Virus record (IMG/VR): IMGVR_UViG_3300045988_039573
Location: 1 to 42,091 of that record
Length of the DNA stretch: 42,091 nt
Reading direction: 5' to 3' (one strand)
Source: a virus
The position numbers and the translations under genes are program-made. The stretch's first letter is position 1, and each line of letters starts with the position of its first letter. The notes under the pieces are model-generated. The model was not told where the DNA came from and did not search any database. It saw nothing but the letters and a program-made list of their open reading frames with translations. Positions 7,567-14,801 of the stretch are shown one piece after another.

Positions 7567-7695
7567 ATGATCCGCATCATCATCGACATCGAAGACCACG
7601 GCGACAAGCTCGCCACGAAGGAATCCGTCGCAATGGCGCTTGAACAGTTTGGCAAGGTGCGCGTCGTTCTCGTATCGGACGGGAGGGAAAAATGA
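7567..7695 (+). CDS. Hypothetical small protein (42 aa)
   Basis: ATG follows an aaggag RBS. Translation begins MIRIIIDIEDHGDKLATKESVAMALEQFGKVRVVLVSDGREK. The stop overlaps the next ATG (ATGA). Confidence 0.45.
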   Translation: MIRIIIDIEDHGDKLATKESVAMALEQFGKVRVVLVSDGREK

Positions 7696-8099
7696 GCCTG
7701 ACGGCATCTGACCTTGCACGTCTCGGGCCTGCGGCACAAAAACAGGTGGTTGAAAAGGTGCTTGCTCAAAAAACGGGCAAGTACCACAACCGCAAAACCG
7801 TGCGGCATGGCATTACGTTTGACAGCAAGCACGAGGCAGATCGCTACGATGAGCTGCGGCTGCTTTTGAAAGCGGGGGAAATACACGATTTGAAGCTGCA
7901 GCAGACATACAAGCTCGTGGGGGTGCAGAGAACGCCAACAGGAGCCGCTGTGAGGGCAGTAACATACATCGCCGACTTCGTGTATACCCGCGGCGGGAAA
8001 ACGATTGTAGAGGACGCAAAGGGCTTTAAGACAAAGGACTATATCATCAAGAAAAAACTAATGCTGGAGCGATTCGGCATCTGGGTGGAGGAAGTGTAA
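7692..8099 (+). CDS. DUF1064-type putative Holliday-junction resolvase / PD-(D/E)XK nuclease
   Basis: NRKTVRHGITFDSKHEADRYDEL......YIADF.Y.....IVEDAKG matches the DUF1064 pattern. Confidence 0.6.
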   Translation: MSLTASDLARLGPAAQKQVVEKVLAQKTGKYHNRKTVRHGITFDSKHEADRYDELRLLLKAGEIHDLKLQQTYKLVGVQRTPTGAAVRAVTYIADFVYTRGGKTIVEDAKGFKTKDYIIKKKLMLERFGIWVEEV

Positions 8100-8322: not shown

Positions 8323-8511
8323 ATGAGCTGCTTTAACTGTCAGGAGCGGCACGTCGGCTGTCATTCGACATGTGAGCGATATGCTGCGTGGCTGCAAGAA
8401 AAGAAAGAGGCAAAAAGCAACGAAACGGCCAGCGTAGCCGAAGAAAGCGCGATGATCAATTACATTCAAAGGTCAAAAGACCGATACAAACGGAGGGTGG
8501 GGAGAAAATGA
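8323..8511 (+). CDS. Small Cys/His-rich protein
   Basis: MSCFNCQERHVGCHSTCERY follows a gaggtggg RBS. The upstream part of track ORF 8287-8511 was discarded. Confidence 0.5.
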   Translation: MSCFNCQERHVGCHSTCERYAAWLQEKKEAKSNETASVAEESAMINYIQRSKDRYKRRVGRK

Positions 8512-8723
8512 TCGAATATCCCTATTGCGTCTATCCGGCGCTGAAAAAGGTTTTCTGCGAGCGGCAGTACACGCGCCGCCAGCTTGCCGATGCGGTAGGC
8601 ATTTCCAAAAGCAACATCTGGTGGTGGCTGTCTGGCAACAATCAGCACACCATCGACGTGATCAAAGGCATCCTCAGAGAAAGCGGCCTGACGTTTGAGG
8701 AAGCGTTCGGAGGTGCGGAATGA
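8508..8723 (+). CDS. HTH DNA-binding protein
   Basis: YTRRQLADAVGISKSNIWWWLSG is a helix-turn-helix. The start has an ATGA overlap with the upstream gene. Confidence 0.6.
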   Translation: MIEYPYCVYPALKKVFCERQYTRRQLADAVGISKSNIWWWLSGNNQHTIDVIKGILRESGLTFEEAFGGAE

Positions 8724-8923
8724 AGGTAGGCGACAAGGTGCGGGCGCAGTTTATGACGGTGCCGGAGGAGTTTCCGGGCAAGGCGCGCGGCGAAAAGCTG
8801 TACCCGATCCGCGCCGGCGTGGTGACGTACATCTATCCGCAGAGGCGCTATGTGACCGTGGCGATCATGGTAGACGGCAAGGAGATCAAAGAGAGTTTCC
8901 GACCGGAGGAGGTGCTGGCATGA
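8720..8923 (+). CDS. Hypothetical protein (67 aa)
   Basis: ORF with ATGA overlaps on both sides, consistent with operon packing. Confidence 0.5.
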   Translation: MKVGDKVRAQFMTVPEEFPGKARGEKLYPIRAGVVTYIYPQRRYVTVAIMVDGKEIKESFRPEEVLA

Positions 8924-9159
8924 ACGCGTTTCCCGAGCGCTTGAAGCGCTTGCGGGAGAGAAAGAGAATAAAGCAATATGTCTTATCTGAACTGTGCGGA
9001 CTGCACCGTGACGCGGTGAGGCGGTACGAGGCAGGGGAGGCTACGCCCACAACGGACGCATTGGAAAGCATTGCTGACAAGTTCGGGGTGTCGGTCGATT
9101 ATCTGCTCGGACGGACGGATAATCCGATGACCGTGGACGATTATCTAAAAAAATTTTGA
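8920..9159 (+). CDS. XRE-family HTH regulator
   Basis: FPERLKRLRERKRIKQYVLSELCGLHRDAVRRYEAGEATPTTDALESIADKFGVSVDYLLGRTD is a canonical XRE HTH. Confidence 0.8.
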   Translation: MNAFPERLKRLRERKRIKQYVLSELCGLHRDAVRRYEAGEATPTTDALESIADKFGVSVDYLLGRTDNPMTVDDYLKKF

Positions 9160-9162
9160 AAA

Positions 9163-9180
9163 TTCCCCTTTTAAGGGGAA
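9163..9180 (+). terminator. Hairpin directly after the XRE gene
   Basis: TTCCCCTT-TT-AAGGGGAA immediately follows the stop codon. Downstream sequence is A-rich, so the function is weak or bidirectional. Confidence 0.4.
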
Positions 9181-9205
9181 AAATAAGAAAATCCTATGCA
9201 AAAAT

Positions 9206-9246
9206 AGAGGCGTGATGGGGCGAGGCTCTTCACGCCTCTGCTTTTT
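9206..9246 (+). terminator. Rho-independent terminator closing the early/regulatory operon
   Basis: A 10-bp stem AGAGGCGTGA / TCACGCCTCT is followed by GCTTTTT. Confidence 0.7.
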
Positions 9247-9270
9247 CATCTGTTTTCTCCCCCCTTGATA

Positions 9271-10030
9271 GCCCGCCCTTCGGGGCGGGCGGTTGAGGGC
9301 AATATGCGGCATAGGTGCCCCGTAAGGGGAGACCACAGCGAGTGACGGGGACTTTCCCTGAAGCGCTAAAGCAGGGCGGGACTGCAATGCCGTACCAATC
9401 ACACAAGCGGGCGAGGAAGCGCGAGAAGTTAAGTACACACAAGCTGTGGCCACAGCGGCGGACAGTTAATCCGCAAAAACAGTGTGCGGCTGATGAAAAG
9501 GCGCAGCGCAGTGTGATTGTGCTGGCAGCTCGGAAAGACGAGCACCCACCCCCTCAATGCAGACGTAGCTCAGTCGGTAGAGCACCGCGCCAGGAGGTAT
9601 GTCGTTGGTTCGAGTCCCACCGTCTGCACCATAGGCGTGACCTCTTGCCTCGCAGCCGCACGGAGCGTAAGCCTGCGGAAGTGGTCTTTCCTGTGCGCTG
9701 TACGAAAGCGGCAGGACGAAGAAATTTATGTATTGGCTGGCACCGGCTTTGTAAAGATGAACGGATGCGACCGACGTACCGGCGCAGGGCTGAAAAGTTC
9801 CGTGGGATACCGGCATTGCTGCACTCTGCGCGAGTGCCGAGGCGTTCAATGGATGTGGTGTGGTGGCGGCAATCGTATGATTAGGCCGCTGTGTAAGCAA
9901 TTCAAACAGAGCGCAATGCCGGAACCCTGTGAAAAGACTAACGCCCAATGTGGGCGGCGTTGTAGCCCATCGGGGCGGGTAAAGTCTGCTATGTAAGGCC
10001 AAGGGGCGGGGGCTGGTAGCAAAAAACGAA
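9271..10030 (+). ncRNA. Candidate large structured RNA (GOLLD/ROOL-like or novel) or structured leader of the late operon
   Basis: No credible ORF is present. The + strand carries dense hairpins with UUCG and GNRA loops, nested helices, and a 10-nt long-range complement (9810-9819 with 9913-9922). A tRNA-like module is embedded. Confidence 0.4.
9559..9631 (+). tRNA. tRNA-like module with non-canonical, shortened anticodon arm (pseudo-tRNA or structural domain)
   Basis: Perfect 7-bp acceptor GCAGACG/CGTCTGC plus ACCA. D arm is GCTC-AGTCGGTA-GAGC. T arm is GTTGG-TTCGAGT-CCCAC with one mismatch. Only 19 nt lie between the D and T arms, with at best ACC/GGT pairing. Confidence 0.6.
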
Positions 10031-10043
10031 AGGAAGTGAGCGT

Positions 10044-10457
10044 ATGGCTGGCGGAGCGCCAAGAAAATGGAAAAGCGTAAAGGCAATGCAGGAAGCTATT
10101 GACGTTTACTTCAAAAGGTGCGCAGGCGAACCGTTTATCGGAGATGACGGCTGCGCTGTGCGAGATAAGTACGGGGTGCCGATTATCATCAACGCAAAGC
10201 CGCCGACAATCACAGGGCTTGCATTGGCGCTTGGATTCACAGGGAGACAAGCGCTGCTGGATTATCAAGCAAGACCGGAGTTCGCGGACACGGTTACGCG
10301 CGCGAAGTCACGCTGCGAGGAATACGCCGAATCTCGGCTCTACGACAAAGACGGTGCGAACGGCGCGAAATTCTCGCTTGGCTGTAATTTTGGGTGGCGT
10401 GAAATGAACGAGACAAAAATAAGCACGGATTCCGTCAAGGTGGTTATTGATGTCTGA
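10044..10457 (+). CDS. terS: Terminase small subunit
   Basis: PPTITGLALALGF..RQALLDY......TRAKSRCEEYAE..L......GAKFSLGCNFGW is the typical TerS pattern. The gene is directly upstream of terL. Confidence 0.8.
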   Translation: MAGGAPRKWKSVKAMQEAIDVYFKRCAGEPFIGDDGCAVRDKYGVPIIINAKPPTITGLALALGFTGRQALLDYQARPEFADTVTRAKSRCEEYAESRLYDKDGANGAKFSLGCNFGWREMNETKISTDSVKVVIDV

Positions 10458-11688
10458 TATTCTCTTGTCAGAAAAAATCGGCTCGGCTTTTTACGATGTG
10501 GCTCACGATGTGTTTCATCATGGGCACACGCACTACGATTTTAGCGGCGGGAGAGGTTCGCTGAAGTCGTCCACGGTGTCTGTGCTCGTCCCCCTGCTGC
10601 TAATAAACAATCCAGGCACGCACGCGCTCGTGCTGCGCAAGGTGGCAAATACGATCCGCGATAGCGTTTATGCGCAGTACATTTGGGCAATCGGGGAGCT
10701 TGGCATGGCAGCGTATTGGGAAGCAAAGGTTTCCCCAATGGAGCTGATCTATAAGCCGACAGGCCAGAAGATTATGTTTCGCGGTGCTGACGACCCCATG
10801 AAAATCAAATCTATCAAAGTGCCATTTGGGTATATCGCGGTGACGCACTTTGAAGAAAAAGACCAGTTTGCTGGACGCGCGGAAATCCGAAACATTTTAC
10901 AGTCCACCATGCGCGGAGGCTCGGTGTTCTGGGATTTTGAGAGCTATAACCCGCCTATCTCGCGTGACAACTGGGCGAACAAGGACAGTTTGGAGGAACG
11001 CGCCGACCGCTTGTGCCACAAGTCAACGTACTTGCAAGCCCCGCCTGAGTGGCTGGGACAGCAGTTTATCGATGAGGCGGAACACTTAAAAGAGACGGAC
11101 GAGCGTGCATATCAGCACGAATATCTCGGCATTCCGGTCGGAACGGGCGGCAACGTGTTTGACAAGCTGGAACTGCGGGAGATCACCGATGAAGAAGTAA
11201 AAAGTTTCGACCGCATCTATCAAGGGGTGGACTTTGGCTGGTTCCCCGACCCGTTCGCTTTTATTCGGCTGCATTATGATCGGGCGCGAGAGACCATCTA
11301 TCTGCTGGACGAGATTTATCAAAACAAATTATCCAACGAGCAAAGCGCGACAATGATTAAGCAGCGCGGATATAACAACATCAGGACGGTCTGCGACAGC
11401 GCCGAGCCGAAGAGTGTTGCTGATCTCCGCGCAATGGGGCTGCCTGCGTATGAAGCGGTCAAAGGCCCCGGCTCCGTGGACTATGGCATGAAGTTTTTGC
11501 AGCGGAGAACAATCGTCATTGACAGGCGACGCACACCAAACGCTTACAATGAGTTTGTTGGATACGAATACGAACGAAACAAAGACGGCGACATTATCAG
11601 CGGATACCCGGACGAGAACAATCACCTGATTGACGCGACGAGGTATGCGTTAGAGCCTGTCAGTCGCAGAATGGGAGTTATTGCATGA
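10447..11688 (+). CDS. terL: Terminase large subunit (PBSX/Terminase_3-like)
   Basis: Walker A GGRGSLKS, 413 aa, and a C-terminal nuclease-like region (NHLIDATRYAL). Confidence 0.9.
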   Translation: MMSDILLSEKIGSAFYDVAHDVFHHGHTHYDFSGGRGSLKSSTVSVLVPLLLINNPGTHALVLRKVANTIRDSVYAQYIWAIGELGMAAYWEAKVSPMELIYKPTGQKIMFRGADDPMKIKSIKVPFGYIAVTHFEEKDQFAGRAEIRNILQSTMRGGSVFWDFESYNPPISRDNWANKDSLEERADRLCHKSTYLQAPPEWLGQQFIDEAEHLKETDERAYQHEYLGIPVGTGGNVFDKLELREITDEEVKSFDRIYQGVDFGWFPDPFAFIRLHYDRARETIYLLDEIYQNKLSNEQSATMIKQRGYNNIRTVCDSAEPKSVADLRAMGLPAYEAVKGPGSVDYGMKFLQRRTIVIDRRRTPNAYNEFVGYEYERNKDGDIISGYPDENNHLIDATRYALEPVSRRMGVIA

Positions 11689-13115
11689 GTAGTGCAGTTA
11701 TCCAAAAGCTAAAAGAACTGGGCTATACGACGATCCCGGAAGAGTTTTATAGCCAAGTTGACCTCTGGAAGTCCTGGTATGTTGGGAAAGTAAAGAATTT
11801 TCACAGATACCGAGAATATAACGGGCATGAGTGGGTGAAAAAGAAGCGGTCTTCGCTCGGAATGGGAAAGAAAGTTTGCGAAGATTGGGCAAATTTGCTC
11901 ATGAACGAAAAGGTTAAAATCACGCTTGAAGGCGAAAAAGAACAGAAATTCATTGACCGCATTTTGGAAGAAAACAACTTTACAGTAAAAGCAAACGAAA
12001 TGCAGGAAATGAAGTCCGCGCTCGGAACGGTTGCATATGTACCGCGCGTCATTGGCCAGAAAGTAAACGACTACGACGCTCCGATTCCCGGAAGTGCGGA
12101 AGACATTGCAATCGACTATGTGACGATGGAGCACATTTACCCGCTTTCATGGCGAAATGGCGTGATTACAGAGTGCGCATTTGATAGTGTTGTAACACGG
12201 TTCGGACATCAGTATTTGTTCCTGCAAATCTTTAAAAAAGAGCGAACCGGCAAATACACAATCGAAAACAGCATTTATCTGTACGAGAACGAAACGCTGT
12301 CGGAAGTTAGCCTTGCATCCGTTGATGGCTTTGAGCGTATCCCGCGTGTCGTCCATACAGGGAGCGCAGAAAAACAGTTTGTGATTGATCGACCGAACAT
12401 CGCCAACAATTTTGATTATCTCTTGCCTGTCGGCGTCCCTGTTTATGCAAATGCTCTTGATGTGCTGGAAAACGTAGACAAGGCGTTTAACTGCTATGGC
12501 AACGAGTTTGACAATGGCGCGTTGCTGCTGATGGTAAAAATGCCAGCAACAAGGTATGAGGACGGAAAACCGACCTTGAACAATAACGATAGCAGATTTT
12601 ACCTTCTCCCAGAGGACACACAGCAAGGGAACGTTGTTGAACCAATTTCCCCACAGTTAAGAACGCAGCAGTTAAATATCGGGTTGCAAGACCAGCTCAA
12701 TATTCTTTCCAGCAAGTGCGGGTTTGGCGAGACCTATTATCGTTTTAGTGGCGATAGCATTGCCACGGCTACGCAGGTCATCAGTGAGAATAGCACCATG
12801 TTCCGCACGATCAAGAAGCATGAAATTATCCTCGAGCAGGCATTGACTGAGTTGTGCCGTGTTCTTCTCCGGCTTGGGAATACTGCAATGAATGCAGGGC
12901 TTGACGAAAATGTAGAAATCTCCATCGACTTTGATGATTCCATCATTGAGGACAAGCAGACCGATTTTTCCCGCGATATGCAACTTTTGACAGCTGGCAT
13001 TATGAACGATTGGGAGTTCCGCATGAAGTGGATGAACGAGGATGAGGCGACCGCAAAAGCGGCGCTGCCGAAGATGCAGGACATGACAACCGAAGGACAA
13101 CAGGAGGTAGAGTAA
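11685..13115 (+). CDS. Portal protein (SPP1 gp6-like)
   Basis: 476 aa, placed immediately after terL with an ATGA overlap. Size and position are typical of a portal. Confidence 0.8.
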   Translation: MSSAVIQKLKELGYTTIPEEFYSQVDLWKSWYVGKVKNFHRYREYNGHEWVKKKRSSLGMGKKVCEDWANLLMNEKVKITLEGEKEQKFIDRILEENNFTVKANEMQEMKSALGTVAYVPRVIGQKVNDYDAPIPGSAEDIAIDYVTMEHIYPLSWRNGVITECAFDSVVTRFGHQYLFLQIFKKERTGKYTIENSIYLYENETLSEVSLASVDGFERIPRVVHTGSAEKQFVIDRPNIANNFDYLLPVGVPVYANALDVLENVDKAFNCYGNEFDNGALLLMVKMPATRYEDGKPTLNNNDSRFYLLPEDTQQGNVVEPISPQLRTQQLNIGLQDQLNILSSKCGFGETYYRFSGDSIATATQVISENSTMFRTIKKHEIILEQALTELCRVLLRLGNTAMNAGLDENVEISIDFDDSIIEDKQTDFSRDMQLLTAGIMNDWEFRMKWMNEDEATAKAALPKMQDMTTEGQQEVE

Positions 13116-13654
13116 TGGGCGGCAGAGGCGGAGCTGGTGGCGGCATTAGAGCCGGAGAATTTGGGCGTGGGCGCGGTATGAGCCTTGCGCGGTTTTTGTC
13201 ACAGCAGGATATTAACCGAGCAAACGCTTCGTCTGTCACTGATATGGGCGATATTATCAGGCGCACATTTGAGCGCAACGCTGCTGAAATCAATGGGCTT
13301 GAGCTGTCGGACGCTGAAAAGAAAGACGCCGTAAAGCAGATGGCAACTCTCGCAACAACGGCGCTCAAAACGGCGGCAGGAGCAGTCAATCCTTATGCAA
13401 GTGGGCCTGCACGCCTGACAACGGCGCAGAAAACAGGAAGCGCCGCAGACAGAGCTGCAAGAGCGCGCGGTGAAATGGATAGCTACATGCGGAAATTGCG
13501 TGACCAGTCCAGTAAAAACCGCAAAGCAGCAGAAAACAAGGCGTTTTCCAATGCCTTTGTAACAGCGCAAAAGTCCGGCGCGTTGGAAGTTACGGTAAAC
13601 GGAAAGAAATACCGCAGGGCTAACAAGCGCAGCGGTACATGGAGACCTGTTTAA
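13115..13654 (+). CDS. Hypothetical Gly/Arg-rich N-terminus protein (MGGRG...), basic
   Basis: The start overlaps the portal stop (TAATG). The N-terminus is MGGRGGAGGGIRAGEFGRGRG, and the remainder is Ala/Lys/Arg-rich. Confidence 0.6.
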   Translation: MGGRGGAGGGIRAGEFGRGRGMSLARFLSQQDINRANASSVTDMGDIIRRTFERNAAEINGLELSDAEKKDAVKQMATLATTALKTAAGAVNPYASGPARLTTAQKTGSAADRAARARGEMDSYMRKLRDQSSKNRKAAENKAFSNAFVTAQKSGALEVTVNGKKYRRANKRSGTWRPV

Positions 13655-14040
13655 TGGGCGGACGCGGCGCAAGTAGCGGCATGAGCGAAAAGGGCAAGCC
13701 TTACGGGAGCGAGTTTAGGACGCTTCTAAAAGCTGGGAACGTAAAGTTTGTAAAGCAAAATGCGGCATTGAACGCAAAAGACCCATTGGAAACTATGACT
13801 AAAGGGCGCATTTACGCAACGATAAACGATGAGGGCAAAATAAATGCAATCAGCTATTACGGTGCAGATGGAAAGCGCATAAAAACAATCAATCTCTTAC
13901 ATAGCCATGAACAATTCAAGGGAGAGCACACGCACATCGGGTATTATCACGATGAGGGCGGCACAAGGGGATTGACTGCGGATGAAAAGAAGCTGGTTGC
14001 ATTCGTAAAAAAGGCTTGGTATAATAGGCATAGCAAGTAG
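13654..14040 (+). CDS. Hypothetical protein with the same MGGRG N-terminus
   Basis: TAATG overlap with the upstream gene. The N-terminus is MGGRGASSGMSEKGKPYG and the C-terminus is His-rich (HSHEQFKGEHTHIGYYHDEGG). Confidence 0.6.
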   Translation: MGGRGASSGMSEKGKPYGSEFRTLLKAGNVKFVKQNAALNAKDPLETMTKGRIYATINDEGKINAISYYGADGKRIKTINLLHSHEQFKGEHTHIGYYHDEGGTRGLTADEKKLVAFVKKAWYNRHSK

Positions 14041-14099: not shown

Positions 14100-14142
14100 A
14101 TGCCGTAAGGTACAGAAATGTATCTTGCGGCATTTTTGTTTT
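14100..14142 (+). terminator. Rho-independent terminator inside the head module
   Basis: A 10-bp stem ATGCCGTAAG / CTTGCGGCAT (one G-U pair) is followed by TTTTGTTTT. Confidence 0.65.
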
Positions 14143-14153
14143 CTGGGGGATTT

Positions 14154-14801
14154 ATGATTAACTTTGAAAATCTTGACAAGTTCACATTCCTCGGCGTGGG
14201 CAAGTACGATATTCCGCAGATCGAGCCGGTCAAGGCATACCCACAAGGTGAGTTTGTCCCCGTGAATTACCATTACACAGCGAAAGACACGAAAAGCAAG
14301 ATTGTGCATTTCTTCGTGGACGATTACCAGTTCATTCGATATTGGAACACGCCGGACAAATACATTCCGAAACTGTCGCAGTTTGCGGCAGTGTGCGCGC
14401 CGGACTTCTCCACCTACACGGATATGCCGCTGGCGATGCAGATATACAACCATTACCGGAAACACTGGCTAGCGGCGTACTGGCAGCTGCACGGCATGAC
14501 GGTATACCCATCTATTTCATGGAGTGACGAGGATAGTTACGATTGGTGCTTTGATGGTGAGCCTGTCGGCGGAATAGTGGCGGTTAGTTCGGTTGGCACA
14601 CAGCAGAATAAAGAAAGCAAGCGTCTGTTTCTTCGCGGCTACGAGGAAATGATGAAACGGCTTTCACCGGAATGGGTGATATTCTACGGGAAAGTGCCGG
14701 AAGAATGCGATTGGAATGTAATCCGCGTTCAGCCGCACTATGACAATATTGTGAAACGGAGGAAAGCAAATGAAATATCCGTTTCAGCCGGAAGTTCTTG
14801 A
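14154..14801 (+). CDS. DUF4417 domain protein
   Basis: HFFVDDYQF.RYWN.P.KY...L..F..V..PDFS.Y.DMP...QI.N.YR..W matches the DUF4417 pattern. The MINFEN start follows a GGGGGA RBS. Confidence 0.65.
   Translation: MINFENLDKFTFLGVGKYDIPQIEPVKAYPQGEFVPVNYHYTAKDTKSKIVHFFVDDYQFIRYWNTPDKYIPKLSQFAAVCAPDFSTYTDMPLAMQIYNHYRKHWLAAYWQLHGMTVYPSISWSDEDSYDWCFDGEPVGGIVAVSSVGTQQNKESKRLFLRGYEEMMKRLSPEWVIFYGKVPEECDWNVIRVQPHYDNIVKRRKANEISVSAGSS

Follow-up and report, generated by a model that had tools for sequence, protein, structure and literature searches.

GOLLD and ROOL RNAs occur in phages and near transfer RNA (tRNA) islands (PMC12286853, PMC5737381). The 5′ region of GOLLD is variable and sometimes holds tRNAs (PMC12286853, PMC5737381), and both RNAs form homo-oligomeric nanocages (PMC12286853). 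The drum (RF02958) and skipping-rope (RF02924) RNAs are, like the modules described below, small, highly conserved and not typical of 5′ untranslated regions (5′ UTRs) (PMC5737381). Here, we analyzed a 42,091-nucleotide (nt) segment of a tailed-phage genome (IMG/VR record IMGVR_UViG_3300045988_039573; hereafter, the window), focusing on the gap between its regulatory operon and terS, the gene for the small terminase subunit. As a first-pass annotation of the sequence had stated, this gap lies at the early/late boundary of the phage, directly upstream of terS. Positions 9306–10026 of the + strand carry a series of structured RNA modules, denoted A, a, T, C, D and Z, and the interval is a mosaic of independently shuffled modules rather than one conserved giant RNA, because the modules occur independently and in other orders in relatives. 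We put the chances at about even that the interval is a + strand phage non-coding RNA island in which tRNA-like punctuation releases individual RNAs and leaves Z as a leader.

The search of GenBank phages with blastn returned three unannotated “Bacteriophage sp.” contigs from human feces, the only GenBank phages that share modules with the window; they share different sub-segments (9557–10024, 9514–9805 and 9302–9435) at 87–92% identity, and their flanking genes do not align with the window at the DNA level. Exact-pattern scans of IMG/VR found 87 loci with a 23-mer from module C and at least 118 loci with a 33-mer from module A, and a gapped pattern for the C core found at least 119 human-gut metagenome contigs. 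Among the species-representative genomes, module A was found in only three, all Clostridia metagenome-assembled genomes, two of them labelled Oscillospiraceae.

Mapping of window positions 9100–10100 onto 208 loci resolved blocks with sharp edges (Table 1) in the architectures AZ (36), CD (29), TAZ (26), TC (24), TCD (14), A (14), AaZ (13) and others, and the order found in the window, AaTCDZ, recurs only in two near-identical contigs. The shortest A+Z form is 163 nt long. Loci differ in how far Z lies from A (44 to ~890 nt), with at least five alternatives for what lies between: module a, following A (~45 loci), a different module, b (~25 loci), C-D (13 loci), nothing (10 loci), or an AT-rich cassette that has a terminator acting in both directions and, in antisense, a near-consensus promoter (8 loci). 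In locus L110 (2900–3700, with the element on the − strand), the A–Z cassette has an antisense near-consensus σ70 promoter (TTGACA-17-TATGAT, 11/12) and a 16-base-pair (bp) bidirectional terminator that abuts A; together, these signals imply a putative small antisense transcription unit. Loci L038 and L081 are 99–100% identical to the window over 9100–10026 and then continue into a different terS family, so that a recombination breakpoint lies exactly at the end of Z (10026/10027).

Known RNAs also take part in this shuffling. In relatives, drum RNA (L167, 10186–10291; L114, 231–336) and skipping-rope RNA (L091, 2349–2443) end exactly at the start of A and thus share a cassette slot adjoining it; in the window, a UUCG hairpin stands there instead. 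Real tRNAs are interspersed among the modules in relatives, and T-C-D lies inside tRNA arrays (tRNA-Thr, T-C-D, tRNA-Gly, tRNA-Met) on contigs of 60–90 kb; in L002, L006, L008, L023 and L079, such arrays are on viral-classed contigs of 58–81 kb, near HU-like and NifS-like (cysteine-desulfurase-like) genes. We also clustered the + strand open reading frames (ORFs) within 3 kb of the elements in 327 loci in search of a specific protein partner; no RNA-related partner was found, and the only recurring neighbors were packaging genes, HU-like genes and spurious GC-rich ORFs.

The first-pass annotation had suggested that the gap holds a member or relative of GOLLD or ROOL. The island indeed shares the setting of GOLLD (RF01998), a modular phage and prophage RNA of unknown function that lies beside tRNAs and sometimes embeds them (PMC12286853): T stands inside the island, real tRNAs flank its homologues, and the terS, terL and portal genes lie downstream. 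However, many GOLLD members exceed 800 nt and form a conserved unit, whereas the largest coherent unit of the island, C-D, is ~295 nt long, its modules assort independently, and it gives no match to the covariance model. Similarly, ROOL (RF03087) is a multi-helix RNA of Firmicutes phages and prophages, found near tRNAs and possibly co-transcribed with them (PMC5737381, PMC12286853), but it averages 581 nt with six multistem junctions as well as three pseudoknots, and its helices differ from those of the island, in which, unlike in ROOL, the core nucleotides are very highly conserved. When the full Rfam library was run on the window at gathering score and on 9100–10100 at E ≤ 10 with permissive filters, the only match in the island was tRNA, in module T; the GOLLD, ROOL, ribozyme, riboswitch and leader families gave no match in 9100–10100 at E ≤ 10, and GOLLD and ROOL gave none at gathering score in 26 related loci. 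The drum and skipping-rope models likewise did not match 9100–10100 at E ≤ 10 and matched only in relatives, directly 5′ of A. The proposed membership in GOLLD or ROOL was therefore not borne out.

The annotation had also proposed a giant structured RNA as a candidate. In this case, the whole interval could be a divergent GOLLD or ROOL member or a sister class with an embedded tRNA, which would fold and act as a single unit, for example, as an RNA-only assembly. An uninterrupted ~730 nt of structured RNA that contains a tRNA-like element would fit such an RNA, as would the phage setting near tRNA islands described for GOLLD and ROOL (PMC12286853, PMC5737381) and the sometimes tRNA-bearing variable 5′ region of GOLLD; furthermore, RNAalifold, applied to 145 sequences, indicated a possible long-range contact within C-D (9647–9656 with 9855–9864). 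However, neither family model matches, many loci have A but not C or C but not A, down to the minimal A+Z form, every module is closed by its own helix, and no inter-module covariation was found beyond C-D. With the modules occurring separately and in other orders across ~330 related loci, we consider a single giant RNA distinctly unlikely. By their context, A, a and C-D are of the same kind as GOLLD, ROOL, drum and skipping-rope, namely, RNAs that phages maintain next to tRNAs; none of these three modules, nor Z, matches an Rfam family. A full-text literature search found no paper with diagnostic strings from A, C or Z, a comparison that leaves out the 10,006 viral RNA candidates of Fremin et al. 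(PMC10690425), and searches of the literature on phage structured RNAs, ROOL and GOLLD, and drum and skipping-rope brought up no description of the modules.

The evidence for structure at the RNA level comes from the homologues. All 12 complementary pairs that the first-pass annotation had listed on the + strand are exact, but the richness in hairpins that it had emphasized is not beyond chance in this GC-rich DNA: the 734 nt from 9297 to 10030 fold with a minimum free energy of −285.5 kcal/mol (z = −0.61 against dinucleotide shuffles, not significant) on the + strand and −252 kcal/mol (z = −0.06) on the − strand, and 117 of 500 shuffled sequences also contain an inverted repeat of 10 nt. We therefore dropped hairpin density as evidence. 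Some single modules do beat their own shuffles, with z = −2.7 for A on the + strand versus −0.5 on the − strand, z = −2.2 for a and z = −2.3 for D. The decisive evidence is comparative, in the form of compensatory base-pair changes across several hundred related gut-phage and gut-metagenome contigs. Such changes were found in A, a, the T stems, D and Z, and they uphold both the strand-specific RNA structure that had been claimed and most of the helices listed. At several paired positions, most or all of the aligned sequences have G-U, which on the opposite strand would be a C-A mismatch, and GNRA and UUCG tetraloops are present in the modules.

These features also bear on the idea that conservation acts on the DNA, as it would for a pac, cos or other terminase site, a late promoter or activator region, or a recombination hot-spot linker. 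The location directly upstream of terS, the mosaic edges where A starts and Z ends, and the 95–98% nucleotide identity in the interval, which exceeds that of the flanking genes, could all be explained in this way. However, compensatory changes, strand-specific G-U pairs and RNA tetraloops are unexpected for duplex-DNA sites, C-D is found in tRNA arrays that are distant from terminase genes, and terS is of the P22 gp3 type; in headful packagers with terS of this type, pac is usually located inside terS. We thus regard a DNA-level explanation as extremely unlikely.

The gap is non-coding, in agreement with the first-pass annotation. The long ORFs overlap one another and the tRNA-like element, and open frames are present on both strands. 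The variable alignment columns are distributed over the codon phases as 58/61/54 (p = 0.81), that is, without 3-nt periodicity, and homologues differ by indels of 1, 2 and 4 nt as well as by wholesale module swaps. The presence of a protein-coding gene, such as the 189-amino-acid ORF at 9315–9884, could be argued from the long frames on both strands and from the persistence of similar frames in close homologues, but these frames persist because nucleotide identity is high. Given the overlaps, the lack of third-position bias, and the frame-breaking indels and module rearrangements among homologues, the protein-coding reading is ruled out, its probability being practically nil.

Module A is a tRNA-shaped four-way junction. 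It was found in all 100 A loci, and in no other locus, by a covariance model (R1) with scores of 44–124 bits; divergent copies of A sought with the covariance model in C-only loci were not found. Among 66 distinct sequences, 98.2% of the alignment cells are paired, and 6 pairs show compensatory changes, compared with none in 500 shuffles. In P2, for example, GCCCC-GUAA-GGGG is replaced by AGCCU-GAAU-AGGC or GCCUC-GCAA-GAGG. P1, the base of P3, and P4 are invariant, partly because the search pattern lay there, and G-U pairs are frequent. The NCCA tail is present in 99 of the 119 distinct copies, and of the 10 copies with the variant ACAA, 8 are those with the AT-rich, terminator-like cassette downstream. 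The position −1 is U in ~68% of the copies. Like tRNA, A has a 7-bp acceptor-like stem, a stacked helix and NCCA; it differs from tRNA in its long P2 and P3 and in its conserved internal loops. We also considered A as a hammerhead or twister-sister core, which was rejected, the topology judged by eye not fitting and the Rfam search being negative.

The embedded tRNA-like module noted in the first-pass annotation is T, to which the Rfam tRNA model (RF00005) matches over its full length (9559–9628, + strand) at 45.1 bits, with a gathering score of 29. T resembles tRNA in its acceptor, D and T arms and in the CCA that it encodes; unlike tRNA, it has no anticodon arm, and CCGCGCCAGGAGGUAUG stands there instead. 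The Rfam alignment places 12 nt against the 15 nt of the model at the anticodon arm, with low posterior probability. ARAGORN reported no tRNA and no transfer-messenger RNA in the window, and on T homologues it gave inconsistent calls (Gly-ccc, Cys-gca, Asp-atc and Phe-aaa, at 81–84 nt). T thus lacks a readable anticodon stem-loop and passes as tRNA-like rather than as a decoding tRNA. In an alignment of 84 distinct T-family sequences, compensatory changes preserve pairing in the acceptor and T stems. The acceptor, D and T arms are near-invariant, whereas 12 or more unrelated inserts take the place of the sequence that separates the D arm from the T arm, for a total length of 64–117 nt; U is found at −1 in 93 of 104 copies. 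The commonest insert, which is also that of the window (9584–9603), contains CCAGGAGGUAUG, a perfect Shine–Dalgarno sequence followed 1 nt later by AUG. A small ORF in T (AGGAGG-U-AUG, 11-amino-acid peptide) was rejected, the 1-nt spacing being too short for initiation.

Our reading of the conserved arms of T draws on what is known about substrate recognition by RNase P. The pattern of constraint in T is that expected if the module is kept for tRNA-processing enzymes, with the part recognized by RNase P retained, rather than for decoding, as we infer from the alignments. T and A both have a 7-bp acceptor-type stem with a second helix stacked on it, an encoded NCCA and mostly U at −1. These are the features of a tRNA-like RNase P substrate, and cleavage is predicted on this basis.

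The same conservation pattern could reflect another role, in which T and A are tRNA mimics or decoys that counter host defenses targeting tRNA or capture a tRNA-binding host factor, the variability of T resulting from an arms race. It is known that phage tRNAs counter anticodon nucleases. T keeps the top half of a tRNA and carries the many unrelated inserts in place of an anticodon arm; AGGAGGU, a complement of the 3′ end of 16S rRNA, is exposed in the commonest insert; A combines a tRNA shape and a CCA tail with very strong conservation of its loops; and the slot behaves as a variable cassette island. However, no defense or anti-defense gene is specifically linked to the elements in the neighborhood clustering of the 327 loci, a bait for anticodon nucleases would be expected to keep the anticodon stem-loop that T in the window lacks, and relaxed constraint outside the surface recognized by RNase P explains the variability more simply. 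A decoy role therefore seems improbable, although it does not conflict with tRNA-like punctuation.

In module a, analyzed in 33 distinct sequences, 12 of the 25 predicted pairs are compensatory, and 99.2% of the cells are paired. The small hairpin between a and T is an exact complement and is kept in loci of the L002 type.

The C-D RNA spans 9632–9925 (~295 nt). It begins directly after a CCA in 71 of 72 aligned sequences, with T or A preceding, and nearly all of the 112 full-length copies from metagenomes, which fall into two classes by their 5′ sequence, have NCCA in front. In the whole C-D RNA, 98.9% of the cells are paired, and the covariation score is 0.193, compared with 0.02–0.06 when the partners are slid. 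The closing helix of D, which is the 10-nt long-range complement listed in the first-pass annotation, changes on both sides in 9 of 9 pairs (9 of 10 in the register of that annotation), and the hairpin at 9865–9890 has 4 compensatory pairs. The long-range helix of C shows only one-sided changes, G-C/G-U or A-U/G-U, and is broken in 1 of 145 sequences; the C core hardly varies, which leaves most of its helices without changes by which covariation could be judged. At the 5′ end of C, GCAG (9652–9655) can pair with either UUGC (9645–9648) or CUGC (9673–9676), and the second sequence class swaps all three segments coherently (CCGC/GCGG/CCGC). Because both mutually exclusive pairings are preserved across the classes, this end could possibly be a switch. 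We further observed that the closing helix and first hairpin of D (9806–9840, 9911–9926) resemble P1, P2 and the 3′ tail of A (9301–9334, 9384–9397), with GAUACCGGCAUUGCUGCACUC corresponding to AUAUGCGGCAUAGGUGCCCC and GCAAUGCCGGAACC to GCAAUGCCGUACCA, which suggests paralogy or recombination between the modules. The additional copy of GCAATGCCG reported at 9384–9392 is real, and this second copy of GCAAUGCCG is present because the ends of D and A resemble each other.

Module Z begins with a variable hairpin (GCCC-AUCG-GGGC in the window; elsewhere, it varies in length and sequence, being UUCG-capped or ~40 nt long), followed by a 6-bp UGCUAU/GUAGCA stem that encloses a GGCC...GGCU hairpin with the G-rich loop AAGGGGCGGG. 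Among 49 distinct sequences, pairing in the stem is kept through changes from C-G to U-A or U-G (11 + 11 sequences). Within ~10–25 nt after Z, 81 loci have the start of a + strand ORF that is preceded by a ribosome-binding site, and these ORFs belong to 12 unrelated families. No + strand terminator follows Z in the window, the conserved helices of Z end before the ribosome-binding site, and the ribosome-binding site differs between loci. Z thus occupies the position of a 5′-UTR element, but no expression platform was found. In locus L022 (3700–3810), which is without Z, an analogous hairpin, GGCC-AGUGGUGGGA-GGCC, with a G-rich loop, lies ~40 nt before the start codon of a homologous terS.

As an alternative to a giant RNA, the first-pass annotation had offered a structured leader. 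In this case, the whole interval would be a cis-acting leader of the late operon, serving in antitermination, as a riboswitch-like sensor, or in control of translation or stability of the terS mRNA. Such phage late-operon leaders include 6S/tR′ of lambda and put of HK022. Like them, Z is a structured RNA at the start of a late transcription unit, adjoining the first late gene; unlike them, the island has no sequence or Rfam similarity to these leaders and no downstream terminator was seen, and most modules are also found away from late genes. The interval is flanked directly by a terminated early operon on one side and by terS on the other, the first gene after Z invariably has its ribosome-binding site right next to Z, regardless of the gene family, the GGCC hairpin of the Z-less locus holds the same place, and the two exclusive pairings of C are switch-like. 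On the other hand, there are loci in which A, T and C-D are distant from Z or in which Z is missing, C-D lies in tRNA arrays that adjoin no late gene, A and Z are separated by anything from 44 to ~890 nt, and in the window no terminator/antiterminator pair was found to follow A, C or Z. We consider a cis-acting leader unlikely as an account of the whole interval. It probably holds for Z only, where it is already part of the punctuated-island reading, so that the leader alternative stands for this last module and falls for the remaining ones.

Under that reading, the island, which has the same orientation as terS, terL and the portal gene located 3′ of it, would be transcribed from the + strand in the terS/terL direction, probably as one precursor running into the late mRNA, with T and A as punctuation marks. 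Host RNase P would cut the 5′ ends of T and A, and tRNA 3′-end maturation would cut after their CCA, so that the 5′ end of C-D would lie exactly behind a CCA. Four stable RNAs would be freed, namely, A (~92 nt), a (~120 nt), T (~73 nt) and C-D (~295 nt), and the terS mRNA would keep Z as its structured 5′ leader. Comparable tRNA-like processing is known from the mascRNA of MALAT1 and from the tRNA punctuation model of mitochondria, and further analogues are the tRNA-like domain of the bacterial Y RNA YrlA and the small stable RNAs of the phage T4 tRNA cluster. Like such punctuation elements, T and A directly abut other RNAs.

Several points weigh against this scheme. The ends, processing and abundance of the island transcripts are predicted. 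No σ70-like promoter was found between the terminator (~9247) and the start of A (9306), and the A–Z cassettes with an antisense promoter indicate that not every version of the locus can be a single sense precursor. A has no Rfam match at E ≤ 10, including any model of the tRNA clan, and none with ARAGORN, and the T copy in the window has one U-C mismatch in the T stem. Moreover, the loops and junctions of A are far more conserved than a cleavage signal would need, so that punctuation cannot be its whole function. Finally, the homologues were gathered by exact-match patterns from A and C and are 95–98% identical, and the covariation in A and in the C core is thin.

The modules are kept at this identity across otherwise diverged phages. 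We tentatively suggest, as a possibility that falls short of even odds, that gut phages of the Oscillospiraceae type maintain, just 5′ of the packaging genes, a hypervariable locus dedicated to RNA cassettes, in which CCA-ended, tRNA-shaped RNAs release A, a and C-D, and that these RNAs have biochemical roles of their own rather than being mere leaders. Such roles might include tRNA mimicry against host immunity directed at tRNA, capture of host factors, or RNA-only assemblies like those of ROOL and GOLLD.

The features of the locus and its neighborhood are listed in Table 1. On the upstream side, the stretch at 9163–9249, at the end of the operon of small helix-turn-helix (HTH) regulators, is a mosaic block of its own because it is common to only 7–13 related loci; the fold of 9160–9250 has −37.1 kcal/mol (z = −5.5 against shuffles). 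On the − strand, the hairpin at 9163–9180 has, by eye, a U-rich run behind it, and no − strand gene is apparent nearby. The UUCG hairpin that follows was found in only ~13 related loci. The sequence CAATAT 5′ of A and T could resemble a −10 element, but this reading was rejected, as the sequence directly adjoins position +1 of the tRNA-like stems. At the other end of the island, the − strand of the hairpin at 9942–9956 was flagged as terminator-like by a terminator scan. Farther downstream, a borderline Rfam match to SpF41_sRNA (RF02435; 14028–14134, + strand; 53.3 bits, gathering score 52) sits in the short gap between head-region ORFs 13639–14040 and 14118–14801 and is unrelated to the island.

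Table 1. Features in and around the RNA island (window coordinates); mosaic blocks are those resolved by mapping onto 208 loci
Feature	Position	Strand	Details
DUF1064/Holliday-junction-resolvase-like gene	7692–8099		upstream of the gap
Small HTH regulator genes	8505–8723 and 8920–9159		upstream of the gap
End of HTH operon	9163–9249	+	hairpin 9163–9180, plus terminator-like hairpin (core 9206–9240), then U-run (to ~9247)
16-bp hairpin, UUCG tetraloop	9262–9299	+	no U-run after; −30.6 kcal/mol, z = −4.8, 0/200 shuffles as stable
Mosaic block A	9297–9398		sharp edges
Module A, tRNA-shaped four-way junction	9306–9397	+	RNAalifold and single-sequence minimum free energy fold agree
A, P1	9306–9312 with 9387–9393	+	7-bp closing stem
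A, P2	9314–9334	+	GNRA loop
A, P3	9336–9372	+	conserved internal loop, variable tip
A, P4	9376–9386	+	stacked directly on P1
A, tail	9394–9397	+	ACCA; U at −1
Mosaic block a	9399–9528		sharp edges
Module a	9398–9518	+	~120 nt; closing helix ~9398–9404 with 9512–9518; conserved core AGCGGGCGAGGAAGCG ... GGCGCAGCGCAG
Small hairpin between a and T	9523–9548	+	GCUCG-GAAAGA-CGAGC (9528–9543); −11.9 kcal/mol, z = −2.3
Mosaic block T	9557–9631		sharp edges
Module T, tRNA-like	9559–9631	+	7-bp acceptor stem, D arm, T arm, encoded ACCA
Mosaic block C	9632–9805		sharp edges
Module C, 5′ domain of C-D RNA	9632–9805	+	starts right after CCA of T
C, long-range helix	9659–9663 with 9800–9804	+	CACGG with CCGUG
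C, invariant hairpin	9689–9716	+	
Mosaic block D	9806–~9925		sharp edges
Module D, 3′ domain of C-D RNA	9806–9925	+	closing helix 9810–9819 with 9913–9922; hairpin 9865–9890
Small hairpin	9942–9956	+	CGCCCA-AUG-UGGGCG; exact complement; kept in window-type loci
Mosaic block Z	9958–10026		sharp edges
Module Z, structured leader	9958–10026	+	ends just 5′ of the ribosome-binding site
Ribosome-binding site and ATG of terS	10031–10046	+	AAGGAAGUGA
terS	10044–10457	+	Pfam GP3_package 1e-19; PHROG terminase small subunit; first gene of packaging/late operon
terL	10447–11688	+	downstream of terS
Portal gene	11685–13115	+	downstream of terL

To conclude, if the reading of this locus as a punctuated RNA island is correct, several new, widespread and strongly conserved RNA classes would join the short list formed by GOLLD, ROOL, drum and skipping-rope, the functions of which are a long-standing puzzle. 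The mosaic layout would provide a testable handle on how such RNAs are made, that is, through excision by the tRNA-processing machinery of the host, and the natural deletion series (A+Z only, A-a-Z, T-C-D and others) could be used in functional tests. Gene callers are likely to turn these RNA elements into spurious ORFs rich in Arg, Cys and Pro, and, with the elements present in several hundred phage and metagenome contigs from the human gut, they would be relevant to the annotation of the gut virome.

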